A stretch of 64,000 nucleotides of DNA from Verrucomicrobia bacterium UBA6614 (GTDB lineage: Bacteria > Verrucomicrobiota > Verrucomicrobiia > Limisphaerales > UBA1100), in assembly GCA_002433235.1 (NCBI GenBank), contig DJHS01000047.1:1369-65368 (forward strand), given 5' to 3'. Shown here piece after piece: positions 25,356 through 51,359 of the stretch (its first letter is position 1; every line of letters begins with the position of its first letter). The position numbers and the translations under genes are program-made. The notes below the pieces were generated by a model. The model ran no database searches. It saw only the letters and a list, made by a program, of their open reading frames with translations, and was not told where the DNA came from.

Positions 25356-25449
25356 GGGCGGAAACTAGCCGGACAACGACTCGTCGCCAAGCGTTTCCCG
25401 CTTTTTCCTTTTCGTGTTAAGGACGATCACGCACCATCCCCAGCTCATG

Positions 25450-26253
25450 AGCCTGTTTGACCTGACTGATGAAGTGGCTGTGGTGATCGGTGCCACCGGC
25501 GCCCTCGGCGGCGCCTGTGCGGTGGCGATGGCCGAGGCCGGTGCCAAAATGGCCGTGGTGGGCCGCAGCGCCGAACGCGGCGAGGCGCGCGTAAGCGAAA
25601 TCACCGAGGCCGGCGGTACAGCGCAATTTTTCAGCTGCGACGCGATGGGTCCGGACAGCCTCAAGGCCTGCCACGAGGCGGTTACCGAGGCTCTCGGCGC
25701 ACCGACGGTTTTGTTGAATGCCGCCGGCGGCAATCATCCCGATGCCACCGTCACGCCCGAGATGCCGTTTGAAAACATCCCCCTGCCCGCATGGGCAAAG
25801 GTGTTTGACCTCAATCTCGTAGGCGGACTGCTCTTGCCCTGCCAGGAATTCGGCCCGGCCATGTGCGAGCGCGGCAAGGGCAGCATCATCAACATTGCCA
25901 GCCTCACCTCGCACCTGCCGCTCTCCAAGGTGATTGCCTATTCCGCCTCCAAGGCCGCCGTACTGAGTGCCACCCGTTTCCTCGCGCGCGAATGGGCCAT
26001 GAAAGGCGTGCGCGTAAACAGTATCACGCCCGGCTTTTTTCCGGCCGAACAAAACAAGAAACTGCTCTTCAACGAGGACGGCACGCCGAGCGATCGGGCC
26101 AAGGCAATCTTTGGTCACACGCCAATGGACCGTTTTGGTGACCCCAAGGAACTTGCCGGCGCCGCGGTGTATCTCGCCAGTGAAAAGGCCGCCAGCTTCG
26201 TGACCGGCTCGGACATTGTGGTGGACGGCGGGTTTTTAGCGCAGACGATTTAA
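25450..26253 (+). CDS. SDR family oxidoreductase (short-chain dehydrogenase)
   Basis: VIGATGALGGA Rossmann motif, NAAG, Y-x3-K (YSASKAA) catalytic motif. Confidence 0.8.
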   Translation, partial: SLFDLTDEVAVVIGATGALGGACAVAMAEAGAKMAVVGRSAERGEARVSEITEAGGTAQFFSCDAMGPDSLKACHEAVTEALGAPTVLLNAAGGNHPDATVTPEMPFENIPLPAWAKVFDLNLVGGLLLPCQEFGPAMCERGKGSIINIASLTSHLPLSKVIAYSASKAAVLSATRFLAREWAMKGVRVNSITPGFFPAEQNKKLLFNEDGTPSDRAKAIFGHTPMDRFGDPKELAGAAVYLASEKAASFVTGSDIVVDGGFLAQTI

Positions 26254-26254
26254 T

Positions 26255-26399
26255 GTGCTGCCGGCATCTTGCCGGCAGGCCAATCGCGCACAATAATCAA
26301 TTCATGAAAACCCAGAAATCCAAATTGAATCCCAAGCCTCCCCTCCGCGCACTTTTGTAAGCAGGCATTGCCTGCCTGCCGGCAAGATGCCGGCAGCAC
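26255..26399. repeat. pair of 25-nt perfect inverted repeats (each itself a hairpin) bracketing ~95 bp upstream of the LarA-like gene
   Basis: gtgctgccggcatcttgccggcagg (26255-26279) is the exact reverse complement of cctgccggcaagatgccggcagcac (26375-26399); additional hairpin gcaggcattgcctgc 26361-26375. Confidence 0.6.
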
Positions 26400-26406
26400 T
26401 TTAGCG

Positions 26407-27699
26407 ATGAACACAATCTCCCAAACCGCACCCGCTGGCACGCCACTGACCGGCGACCAAGTCAACAGCTTCGTGGCCGAGGCGTTGCCGACGGCGGATT
26501 ATTCCAGCAAAAAGGTTCTGCTCATTGTTCCGGACCACACGCGCACGGCGCCCGTGGGCCAGCTGTTCAAAGCCATCCATGCGCAGATCGCCGGCAGCAC
26601 GGCCAAGCTGGATGTGATGATCGCCCTCGGCACGCACCACGCCATGAGCGAGGAGGCAATTTGCGAGCGGCTGGAGATCACGCTCGACGAACGCCGCAGG
26701 CAGTATGCCGATGTCGCCTTTCATAACCATGAATGGGACAACCCCGATATGCTGCGCAACATCGGCACCATTCCTGCCTCGACGATTGGCGAATTGTCCG
26801 GTGGCCGGTTTGAGATGGATGTGCCGGTGGAAATCAATCACACGATCTACGACTACGATCAGGCGATGATCCTTGGGCCGGTGTTCCCGCATGAGGTGGT
26901 CGGTTTTTCCGGCGGCAACAAATACCTTTTCCCCGGCATCAGCGGCCCCGAGGTGCTGAACTTTTTCCATTGGCTCGGCGCGGTGGTCACCAACCCGATG
27001 ATCATCGGCAGCAAATGGACCCCCGTGCGCAAGGTCGTCGATCACGCCGCCGCGATGGTGGATATTGAGAAAACCTGCTTCAGCATGGTGGTGCGTCCGG
27101 ATAAAACCCTCGCCGGACTGTTCTTCGGCACGCCGGAAGGCGCCTGGGATGCCGCCAGCGATTTGTCGGCGACCGAACACATCACGTACAAGGAGCGGCC
27201 CTTCAACAAAATCGTTTCGTGCGCACCGAAGATGTACGATGACCTTTGGGTTGGCGGCAAATGCATGTACAAGCTCGAGCCCGTGCTGGCCGATGGCGGT
27301 GAGCTAATCATTTATGCGCCGCACATCACCGAGGTTAGTTTTTCGCACGGCGATATCATCAAGCAGATCGGCTACCACTGCTCGGCTTATCTGCTCCATC
27401 ACTGGGATCGCTTTAAGGATTTCCCCTGGGGATTGCTCGCACACAGCGGCCACGTGAAGGGCATCGGCACGGTGGACGCCAACGGCAACGAGCAACCGCG
27501 CGCCACCGTCACCCTCGCCACCGGCATCCCGGAGGAGGTTTGCCGGCAAATCAATCTCGGCTACGTCGATTATCGCACGATCGACATTGAAGACTACGCT
27601 GATCGCGAGGACGAAGGCGTGTATCTTGAGCGCAAAGCCGGCGAGCGGCTCTATCACCTGCGCCAACGCCCCGACTGGGCCGGCGGCACGGACGATTGA
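26407..27699 (+). CDS. LarA-family protein (nickel-pincer-nucleotide-dependent lactate/alpha-hydroxyacid racemase homolog, DUF2088)
   Basis: KVLLIVPDHTRTAP...LGTHHAMSEEA N-terminal LarA-like motifs; ATG 26407 (MNTISQ). Confidence 0.75.
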   Translation: MNTISQTAPAGTPLTGDQVNSFVAEALPTADYSSKKVLLIVPDHTRTAPVGQLFKAIHAQIAGSTAKLDVMIALGTHHAMSEEAICERLEITLDERRRQYADVAFHNHEWDNPDMLRNIGTIPASTIGELSGGRFEMDVPVEINHTIYDYDQAMILGPVFPHEVVGFSGGNKYLFPGISGPEVLNFFHWLGAVVTNPMIIGSKWTPVRKVVDHAAAMVDIEKTCFSMVVRPDKTLAGLFFGTPEGAWDAASDLSATEHITYKERPFNKIVSCAPKMYDDLWVGGKCMYKLEPVLADGGELIIYAPHITEVSFSHGDIIKQIGYHCSAYLLHHWDRFKDFPWGLLAHSGHVKGIGTVDANGNEQPRATVTLATGIPEEVCRQINLGYVDYRTIDIEDYADREDEGVYLERKAGERLYHLRQRPDWAGGTDD

Positions 27700-27730
27700 C
27701 AGTCGACGGACTGCTCGGCATCGTGGGCGC

Positions 27731-28564
27731 ATGCCTTCGGTTTCCGCCGATCAAATTGCGTCCTTTGAAGAGGACGGTTATCTCATCATCCCCGGCCTGT
27801 TTGATGCCGAAGAGGCGGGCATCCTTCGCGCCGCCGCACAGGCCGATCAATCCTTCCAGGATCACGCCTACGATTTGGAGGACGGCGAAGGCGGCAAGGC
27901 GCAGCTGGTGCTATGGAATTCCGCCGGCGAAGATCTCTGGGGCGCCATCGCCCGCAGCGAACGCGTCGTCAACGCCATGGAAGCCCTTCTCGGCGATGAG
28001 GTGTATCATTACCACAGCAAGATGAGCATCAAGCAGCCGCGCACCGGCGGCGCGTGGAGCTGGCATCAGGATTACGGTTACTGGTACCAAAACGGCTGCC
28101 TCTGGCCAGACATGGGCTCCGCTTTTATTGCGGTCGATCCCAACACCCGCGCCAACGGCTGCCTGCAGGTGCTCAAGGGCTCCCACAAAATGGGCCGCAT
28201 CGAGCACGGTCGTTACGGCGACCAGACCGGCGCCGATCCCGAGCGCACCGATGAAGCCGTGAAAGTGATGGAGCTCGTTTACGTGGAGCTGAACCCCGGC
28301 GACACGCTCTTCTTCCACAGCAACCTCCTCCATCGCTCCGATCAAAACACCTCGCCTGATCCGCGCTGGTCACTCATTTGCTGCTACAACACCAAGCACA
28401 ACGATCCCTACAAGGATTCCCATCACCCGCGCTACGCCCCGCTCGAGAAACTGCCCGACACCGCCATCAAGGAAATGGGCGCGAAGCTGTTCGAGAGTAA
28501 AACCGATTTCTGGGATCCTGCCGCGGACGCCACGACCGGCGCCGGCGAAAAAGCCTCCACATGA
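27731..28564 (+). CDS. phytanoyl-CoA dioxygenase (PhyH) family Fe(II)/2OG oxygenase
   Basis: ATG ~27731 (MPSVSADQIASFEEDGYLIIPGLF); WHQDYGYW...HSNLLH 2-His-1-carboxylate pattern. Confidence 0.75.
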   Translation: MPSVSADQIASFEEDGYLIIPGLFDAEEAGILRAAAQADQSFQDHAYDLEDGEGGKAQLVLWNSAGEDLWGAIARSERVVNAMEALLGDEVYHYHSKMSIKQPRTGGAWSWHQDYGYWYQNGCLWPDMGSAFIAVDPNTRANGCLQVLKGSHKMGRIEHGRYGDQTGADPERTDEAVKVMELVYVELNPGDTLFFHSNLLHRSDQNTSPDPRWSLICCYNTKHNDPYKDSHHPRYAPLEKLPDTAIKEMGAKLFESKTDFWDPAADATTGAGEKAST

Positions 28565-29649
28565 ACCTCAACATTCATTCCGAACTCCCCGAGCGCAAAG
28601 ACTGGCGCATCGGCTGCGTCGGCAGCGGCTTCATCATGAGCGACTGCCATTTGGTCGCCTACGGCAAGGCCGGCTTCAACCCCGTCGCCATCGCCAGCCG
28701 CACGCAGGTCAACGCCGCCGCCTGCGCTGAGGCGCACAACATCGGCAAAGTGCATAGCACCATCGACCAGTTGCTTGATGACGAATCCATCGAGGTGCTG
28801 GATCTCGCCGTGCCGCCGGACAACCAACTCGAGATCATCAAGGCCGCCTGTGCGCGCGGCACGGCCAAAGGCATTCTGGCGCAGAAACCGCTGGGTGCGA
28901 ATTACGCGGAGGCCGTTGAGGCGGTCGAAGCCTGCGAAGCCGCCGGCATTGTCTTGGCCGTGAACCAAAACATGCGCTACGACCAATCCGTGCGCGCCGG
29001 CAAAACGTTGCTCGAAAACGGCACCATCGGCGATCCCGTGCTCGCCACCATCGACATGCGCGGCATCCCCCACTGGATGCCGTGGCAGGAGCGCCAGGGC
29101 TGGGTCACCCTGCGCATCATGTCCATCCATCACATGGATACTTTCCGCTACTGGCTCGGCGATCCCGAGCGAATCTACTGCACCACCCGCCCCGATCCGC
29201 GCACCACCTTTCCCCACACCGACGGCATCGCCAGTTACATTCTCGAATATGAAAATGGCCTGCGCGCTATCGCCATTGACGACACTTGGACCGGCCCCGC
29301 GCGCGAAGGCGCCCCGGCCGACATCGGCATCGAATGGCGTATCGAGGGCATGGATGGTCTTGCCATCGGCGACATCGGCTGGTGTCAGGATCCGTACACC
29401 ACACCGTCCACCATCCGCTACGCCACCAAGGGCGATGAAGATTTCACTGCGCCGACGTGGCAAGAAAGCTGGTTCCCCGACGCCTTCATTGGCACCATGG
29501 CGCAGCTGCTCATCGGGCTGGAGACCGGCAACCCACCGGCCATCGACGGTCGGGATAATTTAAACACCATGGCTCTGGTGGAAGCGGCTTATATTAGCGC
29601 CGAGCAACACCGGGCGGTGAGCTTGGCTGAAGTAAAAAGTGAAAAGTAG
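28561..29649 (+). CDS. Gfo/Idh/MocA family NAD(P)-dependent oxidoreductase
   Basis: WRIGCVGSGFIMSDCHLVAY Rossmann start, EKPLGANYAEA motif; start overlaps previous stop (ATGA). Confidence 0.8.
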   Translation: MNLNIHSELPERKDWRIGCVGSGFIMSDCHLVAYGKAGFNPVAIASRTQVNAAACAEAHNIGKVHSTIDQLLDDESIEVLDLAVPPDNQLEIIKAACARGTAKGILAQKPLGANYAEAVEAVEACEAAGIVLAVNQNMRYDQSVRAGKTLLENGTIGDPVLATIDMRGIPHWMPWQERQGWVTLRIMSIHHMDTFRYWLGDPERIYCTTRPDPRTTFPHTDGIASYILEYENGLRAIAIDDTWTGPAREGAPADIGIEWRIEGMDGLAIGDIGWCQDPYTTPSTIRYATKGDEDFTAPTWQESWFPDAFIGTMAQLLIGLETGNPPAIDGRDNLNTMALVEAAYISAEQHRAVSLAEVKSEK

Positions 29650-30114
29650 AAAGTAAAAGCCACAAGTCAAAATTCAAATTTTTGAGATATGGTTACTGAT
29701 AGTGAAGGCACAAGCACGCAAGCGGCATCGGATATTAAGCGGCGGGCTTATCAGTTTTCGGTGGATATTTTGAAAATGGCAAATGCGCTGCCGGAGAAAA
29801 AGCTGCAATCGATTCTAATTAACCAACTCGTGCGTTCGGCCACGTCCATCGGTGCAAACATCATCGAGGCGAAAGCCGCCAGCTCGAAACGCGATTTCAG
29901 GCGCTTTTACGACATTGCCCTCAAGTCCGCCAACGAAACCAAATACTGGCTTTGCCTCCTCCGCGACGGAATGAACATCCCATCCACCACCATCGCCCCG
30001 CTCCTGCAAGAGGCCAAAGAAATCTCGAACATCCTCGGCGCCAGTCTCATCACCCTCCGCAAAAAACGCGATTGACCGATCACTTTTGACTTTTAACCTG
30101 TGGCTTTTACTTTC
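29649..30114. mobile_element. IVS-like cassette: four-helix-bundle gene flanked by imperfect inverted repeats, inserted between two operon genes
   Basis: left arm gaaagtaaaagccacaagtcaaaa (29649-29672) vs right arm ttttgac[ttttaacc]tgtggcttttactttc (30084-30114); locally AT-rich. Confidence 0.5.
29689..30075 (+). CDS. four-helix-bundle protein (23S rRNA intervening-sequence protein family)
   Basis: 128 aa; YQFSVDILKMANALP...SIGANIIEAKAASSKRDF...ETKYWL hallmark of the IVS four-helix-bundle family. Confidence 0.75.
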   Translation: MVTDSEGTSTQAASDIKRRAYQFSVDILKMANALPEKKLQSILINQLVRSATSIGANIIEAKAASSKRDFRRFYDIALKSANETKYWLCLLRDGMNIPSTTIAPLLQEAKEISNILGASLITLRKKRD

Positions 30115-30141
30115 TCCTTTTAACCTTTTACTTTTCAAAAC

Positions 30142-30966
30142 ATGAAACTCGGAATGATTAACTCCGCCTGGGAACAGCACGGCATCGGGCTGGTCGACGG
30201 GCTGCACAAGACCAAGGAACTCGGCTTTGATTGCGTGGATATTTTCCAGGATCCACTTGATGACAACGCCGATGACCGCATCGCCACCATCAAACAAACC
30301 TGCGACGAACTGCAGCTGCCCATCATCAGCGTAGTCGGCGTGAGCGTGGGCCTCGTGGATTTCAACCCGTCCGTACAACAATTCCACGTCGAGCGGTGCA
30401 AACGTTACCTCGACATGGCTGCCACGCTCGGAGCGAAGAATTACCTCCTCGTGATCGGCGAATACATTTGGCAAAAGGAAGTCATCCCGCCGGAAGAACA
30501 ATGGCGCTTCGCCGTGGAGAACGTGCAGGTGCTGGGCGATTACGCCGCCGAGCGCGACCTCGAGATCGTCATCGAGCTGGAGCCCTTCCACATGTCGCTC
30601 GTCAACACCATCGCCGAGATGGACCGTTACCTGACCGATGTTGACCGCCCCGCCGTGAAGGCGAATATCGACATCAGCCACATGCTCCTCAGCGACAGCC
30701 CGCCCGAAAGCCTCGCCGCCCTCAAGGGCCGCGCCGGGCACGTGCACATTTCCGATTGCGACGGCAAAGTGCACGGAGACCTGCCTCCCGGCCACGGCGT
30801 GGTGCCTTTCCAACCGTACCTGCAGGCGATCAAGGATCTCGACTTCGACGGCGCCATCAGCCTCGAGCTGGAATATGCGCCCGATCCGAGCAAGATTGTC
30901 GAGTGGGTCACCGAAGCCTACACCTCGACGGACAAGTTAATGGCCGAAGTCAACCTGCGCGGCTAA
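30142..30966 (+). CDS. sugar phosphate isomerase/epimerase (xylose-isomerase-like TIM barrel)
   Basis: FDCVDIF...IELEPFHMSLVNT...HVHISDCDG metal-binding pattern. Confidence 0.8.
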   Translation: MKLGMINSAWEQHGIGLVDGLHKTKELGFDCVDIFQDPLDDNADDRIATIKQTCDELQLPIISVVGVSVGLVDFNPSVQQFHVERCKRYLDMAATLGAKNYLLVIGEYIWQKEVIPPEEQWRFAVENVQVLGDYAAERDLEIVIELEPFHMSLVNTIAEMDRYLTDVDRPAVKANIDISHMLLSDSPPESLAALKGRAGHVHISDCDGKVHGDLPPGHGVVPFQPYLQAIKDLDFDGAISLELEYAPDPSKIVEWVTEAYTSTDKLMAEVNLRG

Positions 30967-31370
30967 TGAGCACCGAACCCAACGAGTGGCAAACACAGTT
31001 TCGCGACCTTTTCTTTAAGGGCGTCGAACGCCATGAAGCCGGCCGGCAATCGCCCGAAACAATGTTCGAAGGCGACGAACCCGCCTTTCTCGAATCCATC
31101 GGTTGCAGCACACAGGAGATGTTTGATTTCTGTGACGACTACGTGCGCTGGGGCGATGTCGTTTACGAGCACGTCGAGGAATTGCAGGCCGTGCGGCGCG
31201 ACTATTTTCTCAACGACCTCCGGGGCCAACCCGCCGCGCGCCGAATGGAGATGGAGGAATTTCCCGCCAAGACCGATGAGATTGCCGGCGTCGCCTGGCT
31301 CCCGCGCCTGATCGTCAAGGCCCGTGCCAAGCTCGAGGGCGCCCTGCCCGCGGATTTAATGTACGGCTGA
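30966..31370 (+). CDS. DUF5069-like small protein; in-frame TGA at 31368-31370 with coding-like continuation to TAA 31494-31496
   Basis: ATG 30966 overlaps upstream stop (TAATG); ...[71 protein letters not shown]; strong GC3 bias continues after the TGA. Confidence 0.65.
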   Translation: MSTEPNEWQTQFRDLFFKGVERHEAGRQSPETMFEGDEPAFLESIGCSTQEMFDFCDDYVRWGDVVYEHVEELQAVRRDYFLNDLRGQPAARRMEMEEFPAKTDEIAGVAWLPRLIVKARAKLEGALPADLMYG

Positions 31371-31492
31371 GGCGGCGACCGCCAGTTCTTCCGTGAGAAG
31401 AACGTCGACCCTGCCGAACTTCTGCGCGTCACCCTCGTTGCCGGCGACGAAGATCAACTCATCGTGGATTACGTGGAAAGCTGCATTCACGG

Positions 31493-31867
31493 CTAACCCA
31501 AGCGGCAATTCTCCGCGCCGGCAAACGCGTACTCCTCCACCACGCGCCCGGCAATCAGGTGTTCCTGGATGATCCGCTCCAGCACCTCCGGGGTACAGGA
31601 ATGGTACCAGGTACCCTCCGGATAAACCACGGCCACTGGCCCGCGCAGGCAAACCCGCAGGCAATTGGCCTTCGTGCGAAACACCTGCGGTTTGGCACCC
31701 ACCAAACCCAGTTCCTTCAGTCGGTTCTTCAGATAATCCCAAGACTCCAAGCCAGCCTCCTTGGCACAGCATTTGGCATCCGTCTGATCTGCACACAGGA
31801 AGATGTGGCGTTGGTATTTGTTCAATCCCAGAGTTTTTGTGCTTGTCTGAAGGTTTGGTTCGGACAT
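31493..31867 (-). CDS. thioredoxin-like [2Fe-2S] ferredoxin
   Basis: [14 protein letters not shown]...[20 protein letters not shown] four-Cys pattern of thioredoxin-fold 2Fe-2S ferredoxins. Confidence 0.75.
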
Positions 31868-50066: not shown

Positions 50067-51359
50067 TTAAATAAACAACCCTGCGATGCAGGCATTAATG
50101 TAGCTGACGAGCACGCCGCCGGCCATGGCACGGAGGCCGAATTGGGCGAGATCTTTGCGGCGTTCGGATGCGAGTGAGCCGATGCCTCCGATTTGGATGG
50201 CGATGCTGGCGAAATTGGCAAATCCGCAAATGGCATAAGTGGTGATATAAAAACTGCGCTCATGTGCCAGCGTGGTGATTTCGGGATTGGTCAGTGCCTT
50301 AAAGCCCATGAATTCATTGAGCACGATTCGCTCGCCGAGCACCTGCCCGACGGCGGTGCAGTCTTCCCAAGGAACTCCCATCAGAAAAGCAAAAGGTGCG
50401 TTGAGCCAGCCGAGGATGTTTTGAAAGGTGTATGTGCTTTCCGTAGCCACACCGATCCATTGCTGGGGCTGGGCGATGAGGATGTTTAAGAGCGCTACTA
50501 CGGCGGTGAAGGCGATCAGCATAGCCAGTACGTTGATGGTGAGCTTCATTCCGTCGCCGGCACCTTGGCAAAGGGCATCGAGTATGTTGGAGGTCTCAGG
50601 CTTTACCTCAGCGGTGGCCCCATGAGCGGTGGGGCTTGTTTCAGACTCGGGCAGGAGAATTTTGCCCATCAGCAATGCCACTGGCGCAGCCATCACTGAG
50701 GCGGTGAGTAGGTGGCCGGCCATGTCGAGGTAGCCGGCGGTTTTGCCGAAGCTTGCATATACGGCAAATACGCCTCCGGCGATGGTGGACATGCCAGCCA
50801 CCATCATGGTCATGATTTCGCTGCGTGTCATACCCTTGAGGTAGGGCTTGATGACCAAGGGCGCCTCGGTTTGGCCCATGAATACGTTGGCGGCGCTGCA
50901 GAGGCTTTCGCTGCCACTGGTGCCGAGGAGGCGGCGCATTACCCACGCCATGCCGCGCACGATGTGTTGCAGGATGCCGAGGTGGTAAAGCAGGCTTGAG
51001 ACGGTGGCCACGAGGATGATGGTACCAGCGATGATGATGGCGACCAACGCGCCGGTGTCGTCACGGCTGTCGCCAATTTTACCGAATGCTTCGCCCATCT
51101 CTCCGTGGTTGGCCAAAGGGCCGAAAACCAGTGAGGTGCCGGCTTCGGCGGCATCCAGTAGTTTTTGGACAGCGGTCTTGGCGAAAGAAAAAATTTTTTC
51201 GCCCACGGGTGTTTTGAGCATAAATAGCGCCAGCGCCAACTGCAGGCCAATTCCCGAGAGCACGATGCGCCATGGGAATCGATCTCTTCGCAGCGAGATG
51301 CCCCATGCCATGGCAAGGAATGCCACCAGCCCGAGCAGGCTCATTAATCGTAAGTCCAC
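50067..51359 (-). CDS. NupC/CNT family concentrative nucleoside transporter
   Basis: 430 aa, ~10 TM; C-terminal nucleoside-transporter domain pattern (GFKALTNPE...IAIQIGGIG). Confidence 0.75.
   Translation of the reverse strand: MDLRLMSLLGLVAFLAMAWGISLRRDRFPWRIVLSGIGLQLALALFMLKTPVGEKIFSFAKTAVQKLLDAAEAGTSLVFGPLANHGEMGEAFGKIGDSRDDTGALVAIIIAGTIILVATVSSLLYHLGILQHIVRGMAWVMRRLLGTSGSESLCSAANVFMGQTEAPLVIKPYLKGMTRSEIMTMMVAGMSTIAGGVFAVYASFGKTAGYLDMAGHLLTASVMAAPVALLMGKILLPESETSPTAHGATAEVKPETSNILDALCQGAGDGMKLTINVLAMLIAFTAVVALLNILIAQPQQWIGVATESTYTFQNILGWLNAPFAFLMGVPWEDCTAVGQVLGERIVLNEFMGFKALTNPEITTLAHERSFYITTYAICGFANFASIAIQIGGIGSLASERRKDLAQFGLRAMAGGVLVSYINACIAGLFI

Follow-up and report, generated by a model that had tools for sequence, protein, structure and literature searches.

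A conserved in-frame TGA points to a probable, uncatalogued DUF5069 selenoprotein in marine Verrucomicrobia

Does the TGA at positions 31368-31370 of a verrucomicrobial contig end a gene, or is it read as an amino acid? The codon lies on the forward strand of a 64,000-nucleotide stretch of contig DJHS01000047.1 (Verrucomicrobia bacterium UBA6614, assembly GCA_002433235.1), the whole of which is called the window below. The gene in question resembles the Pfam family DUF5069 (PF16798). A sequence-only reading of the window had noticed that the frame of this gene stays open beyond the TGA and had proposed a selenocysteine (Sec) codon or programmed read-through. Comparison with relatives lends support to the first proposal through a conserved TGA, purifying selection downstream of it and a covarying hairpin that fits the model of the bacterial selenocysteine insertion sequence (SECIS). 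Hence, we consider it very probable from the sequence comparisons that the TGA is decoded as Sec and that the gene at 30966-31496 encodes a DUF5069 selenoprotein of 176 residues. Three features define the gene:

30966-31496, forward strand: full DUF5069 gene, putatively of a selenoprotein; 176 codons (Sec would be codon 135) plus TAA
31368-31370, forward strand: putative Sec codon, in-frame TGA (U135), in the motif LMYG-U-GGDR
31371-31493, forward strand: the 41 C-terminal codons after the putative Sec codon, absent from public gene calls

The reading frame is as the sequence-only reading described it. The residues directly before the TGA are ...PADLMYG, and 41 sense codons follow in the same frame up to a TAA at 31494-31496, where the extended gene and a convergent ferredoxin-like gene overlap at their 3′ ends by 4 nt. 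Within the first 31 codons following the TGA, there is no in-frame ATG, GTG, or TTG. Taken alone, the open extension is not significant: of the stop-to-stop intervals in the window, 26% have a length of 41 codons or more. The weight of the case comes from comparison: the TGA, the downstream frame, and the hairpin are all conserved over dozens of independent sequences. The family assignment depends on the same codon. With the TGA read as cysteine (Cys), the product scores 31.6 bits against PF16798, versus 15.1 bits for the truncated product, and the Pfam gathering threshold for this family is 27 bits; the protein thus passes as a DUF5069 member only if the TGA is read through. Cys-form homologs have PF16798 among their precomputed domain assignments. 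A helical extension of ~95 residues precedes the DUF5069 domain at the N-terminus. Public gene callers shorten the protein to about 131-134 residues.

First, we focus on the codon itself. The DNA of 80 loci was fetched from a species-representative genome collection. A marine Verrucomicrobiales group is represented by 22 loci, namely the window and 21 fetched ones; at the position in question, 22/22 have TGA and none has TAA or TAG, and 60 more distant orthologs have TGC or TGT at the same codon, within the motif LMYG-C-GGDR. Cys-form homologs are 173-176 amino acids long; the check proposed from the window alone had been whether homologs have ~175 residues and a Cys at this column (YG-C-GGDR). 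In these alignments, an in-frame UGA stands where homologs have Cys. The same pattern emerged from metagenome contigs of the Joint Genome Institute (JGI), which were scanned with the degenerate DNA pattern D-L-M-Y-G-TGA-x-G-D-R, the hairpin not being part of the pattern: 45 contigs matched, and 44 of them are family members with the TGA and an intact downstream frame. In a neighbor-joining tree, the Sec forms (53 unique) are monophyletic with amino acid identity down to 57%, and the best identity between a Sec and a Cys form is 58%. This tree fits one old replacement of Cys by Sec, which would have been kept ever since.

Two further observations concern the Sec-type sequences. The Gly codon immediately before the TGA (codon -1, 31365-31367) is GGC in 23/24 unique Sec-clade sequences, with a proportion of synonymous differences (pS) of 0.08, and other nearby Gly codons vary freely; Sec decoding may require this GGC as context. 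In addition, the metagenome-assembled genome (MAG) CAZTTU01 has three distinct Sec-type copies on three contigs (L015, L017, and L018), with the same neighbors where flanks are present. They are real paralogs, or else the bin mixes related strains.

The recurrence of the codon also bears on trivial explanations, namely a sequencing error, a recent pseudogene, or a genome-wide reassignment of UGA (code 4 or 25). Reassignment of UGA to tryptophan (Trp) exists in some Verrucomicrobiota, according to one report (PMC13462651), and a single database entry (P0002) has Trp at the position. However, the DNA underlying this entry has TGA, and the stored protein is not reproduced under translation table 11; the W is thus the choice of code 4 by the gene caller. 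P0002 (L081 968-1498, L082 546-1076) also illustrates how the use of code 4 on short contigs gave a full-length "W" protein that could mislead homology checks. The code of the organism is not reassigned, because TGA ends 13 of the 33 other genes in the window that are confidently called open reading frames (ORFs), and no other window gene needs UGA read-through. The TGA recurs in >60 independent assemblies spanning 57-97% identity. Polished long-read assemblies have it, among them a 3.5-Mb contig, and so do Illumina MAGs, Tara scaffolds, and a single-cell genome. Since it is present across so many assembly types, a sequencing error or a recent pseudogene is excluded. Taken together with reassignment, we give these explanations practically no weight.

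How do public databases represent the family? A database search with the read-through protein gave 448 relatives. Among the best 120 clusters, the protein stops precisely at ...MYG in 112, extends to full length with Cys at the position in six, and has Trp in one; a full-length U-containing version, for which the top rank would be expected, was not among these 120. Homologs that end at the TGA had been named in the sequence-only reading as a finding that would speak against it, and in a formal sense the 112 clusters are such homologs. Nevertheless, the DNA of every examined locus whose protein record ends at ...MYG goes on in frame, and the shortened records are an artefact of gene calling.

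This leads to the possibility that the TGA is a true stop, which would give a product of 134 residues, and that the 123 nt downstream are conserved for another reason, for example because they hold a small ORF of their own or an RNA element. The public gene calls, which all end there, and the chance frequency of 41-codon open extensions (the 26% of intervals given above) would fit such an arrangement. Selection on the downstream codons does not. Over 24 unique Sec-clade sequences, the ratio of nonsynonymous to synonymous differences (pN/pS) is 0.180 for 88 codons upstream of the TGA (pS 0.656) and 0.205 for 34 codons downstream (pS 0.623), with pS near saturation at about 0.65 in this comparison. 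Purifying selection thus acts on the codons after the TGA as it does on those before it, and their synonymous sites are free outside the hairpin. Moreover, the peptide after the TGA is collinear with the C-terminus of the 173-176-residue Cys-form homologs and begins with an invariant GGDR right after the TGA. The downstream codons are therefore homologous to the C-terminus of the Cys form, they are required to complete the DUF5069 domain, and no start codon is near the TGA. The sequence beyond the UGA is hence conserved as coding sequence. For the Sec-clade homolog P0002, the AlphaFold model of the full-length protein stays confident up to the C-terminal end (mean predicted local distance difference test, pLDDT, 91.9; predicted template modeling score, pTM, 0.85). 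A true stop is already largely refuted by these data, and we regard it as very improbable.

If the TGA is translated, what recodes it? The sequence-only reading pointed to two hairpins downstream of the codon and assigned a SECIS-like role to the second one. The elements are as follows:

31371-31383, forward strand: hairpin 1, GGCGG-CGA-CCGCC
31385-31403, forward strand: hairpin 2, candidate bacterial SECIS-like hairpin, GUUCUUC-CGUGA-GAAGAAC, within the codons Q-F-F-R-E-K-N
31385-31391, forward strand: 5′ arm of hairpin 2, GUUCUUC
31392-31396, forward strand: apical loop of hairpin 2, CGUGA
31397-31403, forward strand: 3′ arm of hairpin 2, GAAGAAC

Hairpin 2 starts 14 nt past the TGA, as originally described, and has a stem of 7 bp; its loop was first given as 6 nt, with one g too many written, and has 5 nt. 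The published model of the bacterial SECIS has an apical loop of 3-9 nt and an upper stem of 4-16 bp (PMC13188914, Fig. 2 legend), a G among the first two loop positions, a distance of 16-37 nt from the UGA to the loop, and a minimum free energy (MFE) of at most -7.5 kcal/mol (PMC13188914). Hairpin 2, with a loop of 5 nt, a stem of 7 bp, a loop G at position 2 followed by U, and a spacing of 21 nt, lies within all of these constraints, for the MFE marginally (-7.6 kcal/mol). With z = -2.6, the folding energy is modestly unusual by itself.

The conservation of hairpin 2 is more telling than its energy, for which a comparison of the Sec and Cys clades was set aside on account of GC differences; in-register base pairs were counted instead. 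Across 18 distinct sequences, 98.4% of the alignment cells in the helix are paired. All seven pairs are formed in 41/46 unique Sec-type sequences, and the remaining five lose the bottom pair only. Among the Cys-form sequences, none of 57 has the seven in-register pairs. A compensatory change from C-G to U-A occurs in three loci (L009, L010, and L019) and recurs in metagenome contigs. The codons TTC (+7), CGT (+8), and GAG (+9) within the hairpin are identical in 24/24 Sec-clade sequences, and pS in the hairpin is 0.30, compared to 0.62-0.73 elsewhere. Where the loop varies (CGGGC, CGUGC), the G at position 2 is retained. The role proposed for the second hairpin is consistent with both its fit to the SECIS model and its covariation.

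Hairpin 1 fared differently and is rejected as part of the element. Here, 87.8% of the cells are paired, the middle pair is broken in 7/18 sequences, and at least one Cys form (L021) has an equivalent predicted helix. Because of this equivalent helix, hairpin 1 is probably a by-product of the codons for GGDR.

Downstream RNA structure can stimulate read-through generally. A selenium-free programmed read-through, in which hairpin 2 slows the ribosome or impairs release factor 2 (RF2) and a near-cognate tRNA for Trp, Cys, or Arg decodes the UGA, would yield a mixture of products of 134 and 176 residues. The small size of the hairpin would suit this mechanism, as would the negative searches for Sec machinery in the window and the syntenic loci. 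On the other hand, the codon is always TGA and is paired specifically with Cys, which is a signature of Sec; in its spacing and its G-U loop, the hairpin matches elements that bind SelB; and a position held by an essential, nearly invariant Cys would be ill served by Trp or Arg. We therefore judge selenium-free read-through to be improbable. A closer relative of Sec decoding would be the SECIS- and SelB-dependent insertion of Cys at the UGA by a Sec-like tRNA charged with Cys, and such recoding has reportedly been proposed for some bacteria by Mukai et al. in 2016. The TGA, the SECIS-like hairpin, and the Cys in homologs fit this arrangement equally well. However, such systems are rare and nothing at this locus specifically indicates one, which leaves it only a very small chance.

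Several points weigh against Sec decoding itself. Hairpin 2 is short and passes the threshold of -7.5 kcal/mol only by a narrow margin, and its covariation comes from a single base pair. It has no match in Rfam, as a scan of the window at gathering thresholds gave nothing; a permissive Rfam scan of 31300-31520 returned THF-II on the hairpin, a spurious match of 12 bits. Searches with tblastn for homologs of Escherichia coli SelA, SelB, and SelD found no selA, selB, or selD, either in the window or among the fetched loci (1.46 Mb), and ARAGORN predicted no tRNA(Sec) in the window or the loci and no tRNA at all in the window. These negatives say little about the genome, because the fetched loci all cover the same syntenic neighborhood. 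Finally, scans of the window and of the flanks of genome-derived Sec-clade loci turned up no further selenoprotein candidate. The hits considered there have ordinary explanations. The TGA at 50997-50999 (forward strand) is the only other one in the window with a coding-like score on both sides and is antisense to a 430-aa gene (50067-51359, reverse strand), a high-GC antisense artefact; in the scanned flanks, the only other hit is a marginal one in L005, which was judged by eye to be antisense as well; and the long same-frame extensions past the TGAs at 2557 and 52357 are simply the next genes, each with its own start. Among the TGAs of the window, only the one at 31368-31370 is flanked on both sides by convincing coding sequence.

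With these points weighed, Sec remains our reading of the codon, and the recoding would follow the standard bacterial scheme. When the ribosome nears the UGA, SelB, loaded with GTP and Sec-tRNA(Sec), would bind the hairpin at 31385-31403, whose apical loop CGUGA begins 21 nt after the UGA. SelB would then bring Sec to the A site in competition with RF2. Translation would continue for 41 further codons to the TAA at 31494. In evolutionary terms, Sec would have replaced the nearly invariant Cys of YG-C-GGDR once, in the ancestor of the marine Verrucomicrobiales clade.

What might a Sec residue do in this protein? The fold is all-helical and not thioredoxin-like, and it is like that of the solved family member PDB 3omd, in which the Cys of "YNC" aligns in sequence with the Sec position. 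A Foldseek search against PDB gave no significant match. The family-invariant residues include C47 (in IGC[ST]), WLPR, the Y and the G flanking Sec/Cys, and the G, D, and R of GGDR. The sequence-only reading had suggested the nearby C-terminal Cys as redox partner, which we could not uphold: Cys172 is conserved only in part, and the invariant Cys is C47. Most members of the Sec clade have a further cysteine, Cys56 (FDF-C-DD), at a position where the Cys forms have Val. To our knowledge, Sec replaces almost only catalytic, redox, or metal-binding cysteines. For this reason, the residue in YG-C-GGDR is probably the active site of an otherwise uncharacterized domain. Sec135 may act as a redox or metal-binding residue, possibly together with C47, and among the cysteines this invariant Cys47 would be its most plausible partner.

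The neighboring genes might indicate the process in which the protein takes part. Three of them are conserved around the gene:

28561-29649, forward strand: GFO/IDH/MocA oxidoreductase, conserved member of the upstream cluster
30142-30966, forward strand: xylose-isomerase-like TIM barrel (AP_endonuc_2), Pfam 143.8 bits; its TAA overlaps the ATG of the putative selenoprotein gene by one base
31493-31867, reverse strand: convergent thioredoxin-like [2Fe-2S] ferredoxin-like gene; NCBIfam 2Fe-2S ferredoxin at 50.9 bits, below cut-off

The A of the ATG at 30966 is the base in common with the upstream TAA, and the DUF5069 gene is translationally coupled to the TIM-barrel gene; a partnership of the two products is what we infer from this arrangement. 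The TIM-barrel gene lies directly upstream in all Sec-group loci with recovered upstream DNA and also in the marine Cys clade, and the ferredoxin-like gene lies downstream in most Sec-group loci. For the distant Cys forms, the context is variable and uninformative. Among loci L001-L038, the TIM-barrel protein is 84-98% identical in loci whose DUF5069 proteins are only ~53% identical, so that the enzyme appears far more constrained than its small DUF5069 partner.

Further upstream, a same-strand run at 25414-30966 (forward strand) consists of a short-chain dehydrogenase/reductase (SDR), a LarA-like protein (Lar_N), a PhyH dioxygenase, the GFO/IDH/MocA oxidoreductase, and the TIM barrel, and the putative selenoprotein gene comes last. 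The 3.5-Mb genome contig (L085) preserves this run. Its composition suggests a cluster for the oxidation of sugars or sugar acids, and it may serve an uncharacterized pathway for such compounds. Between the GFO/IDH/MocA and TIM-barrel genes of the window, there is a four-helix-bundle gene (29689-30075, forward strand, 128 aa, TIGR02436 at 98 bits), which the window shares only with its closest relative L001. The distance from the GFO gene to the DUF5069 gene is ~1320 nt in these two, compared to ~840 nt in the other Sec-clade loci. The four-helix-bundle gene looks like a lineage-specific insertion of ~490 bp inside the operon.

Is such a gene known? In its architecture, it resembles bacterial genes with an intragenic SECIS, such as E. 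coli fdhF and fdnG and the families of Zhang and Gladyshev: the UGA aligns with Cys of homologs, a stem-loop with a small G-U loop and a spacing of 16-37 nt lies just downstream inside the coding sequence, and annotation truncates the gene. It differs from these in that the protein belongs to DUF5069 and has an all-helical fold rather than a thioredoxin-like one, and in that the local motif is YG-U-GGDR, with neither UxxC nor CxxU. Within PF16798, the solved 3omd, an uncharacterized protein from Leptospirillum rubarum, has Cys at the position, whereas the present clade has Sec by our reading and the ~95-residue extension with the invariant Cys47. In contrast to other PF16798 members, the gene of marine Verrucomicrobia sits in an operon with a TIM-barrel enzyme gene.

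Another similar case in the literature is the "hypothetical protein DG" (NF049953; deep-Sep, PMC12013277), which shares the short motif G-U-x-G with the present protein. However, DG comes from Desulfosediminicola and is without a conserved domain, whereas the present protein has DUF5069 and gives no NF049953 match at E ≤ 10; the two are not the same family, as the DG model itself does not match. Nor did any other NCBIfam model, for selenoproteins or otherwise, match the DUF5069 protein at E ≤ 10. DUF5069 is absent from Table 1 of an inventory published in 2026, which comprises 119 families and subfamilies of prokaryotic selenoproteins (PMC13188914), and the family is likewise absent from the new-family sequences of the Global Ocean Sampling (GOS) study, in which the "hypothetical protein GOS_A" is a different protein. 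In the literature searched, a scope that excludes the supplements of other papers and BSepDB, "DUF5069" and "PF16798" are not mentioned. The recoding mechanism thus appears to be the standard bacterial one and the family appears to be unlisted.

Beyond the decoding of the codon, we lean towards a wider picture in which DUF5069 proteins of this clade form an uncatalogued, all-helical, non-thioredoxin selenoprotein family that arose by a single change from Cys to Sec. YG-U-GGDR, probably with Cys47, would form the active site, and the protein would act alongside the TIM-barrel sugar isomerase/epimerase that is translated with it, as part of a gene cluster for carbohydrate oxidation.

New selenoprotein families are still regularly found by the logic of pairing Sec with Cys, and the case presented here is an unusually clean one. 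It would be a selenoprotein family that pipelines have systematically missed, with at least 112 public protein clusters truncated at this codon; the National Center for Biotechnology Information (NCBI) records of the examples seen read "hypothetical protein." A systematic annotation error in marine Verrucomicrobia is thereby exposed. The very uniform SECIS-like hairpin, which extends over a deep clade, would offer a clean natural data set for refining models of the bacterial SECIS. As regards structure, the family would widen the range of selenoprotein folds beyond the dominant thioredoxin-like folds. For DUF5069, it provides a first functional clue, as the Cys of YG-C-GGDR would be marked as catalytically important, most likely redox-active or metal-binding. 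For the abundant, uncultured marine Verrucomicrobia, the finding flags a use of selenium.

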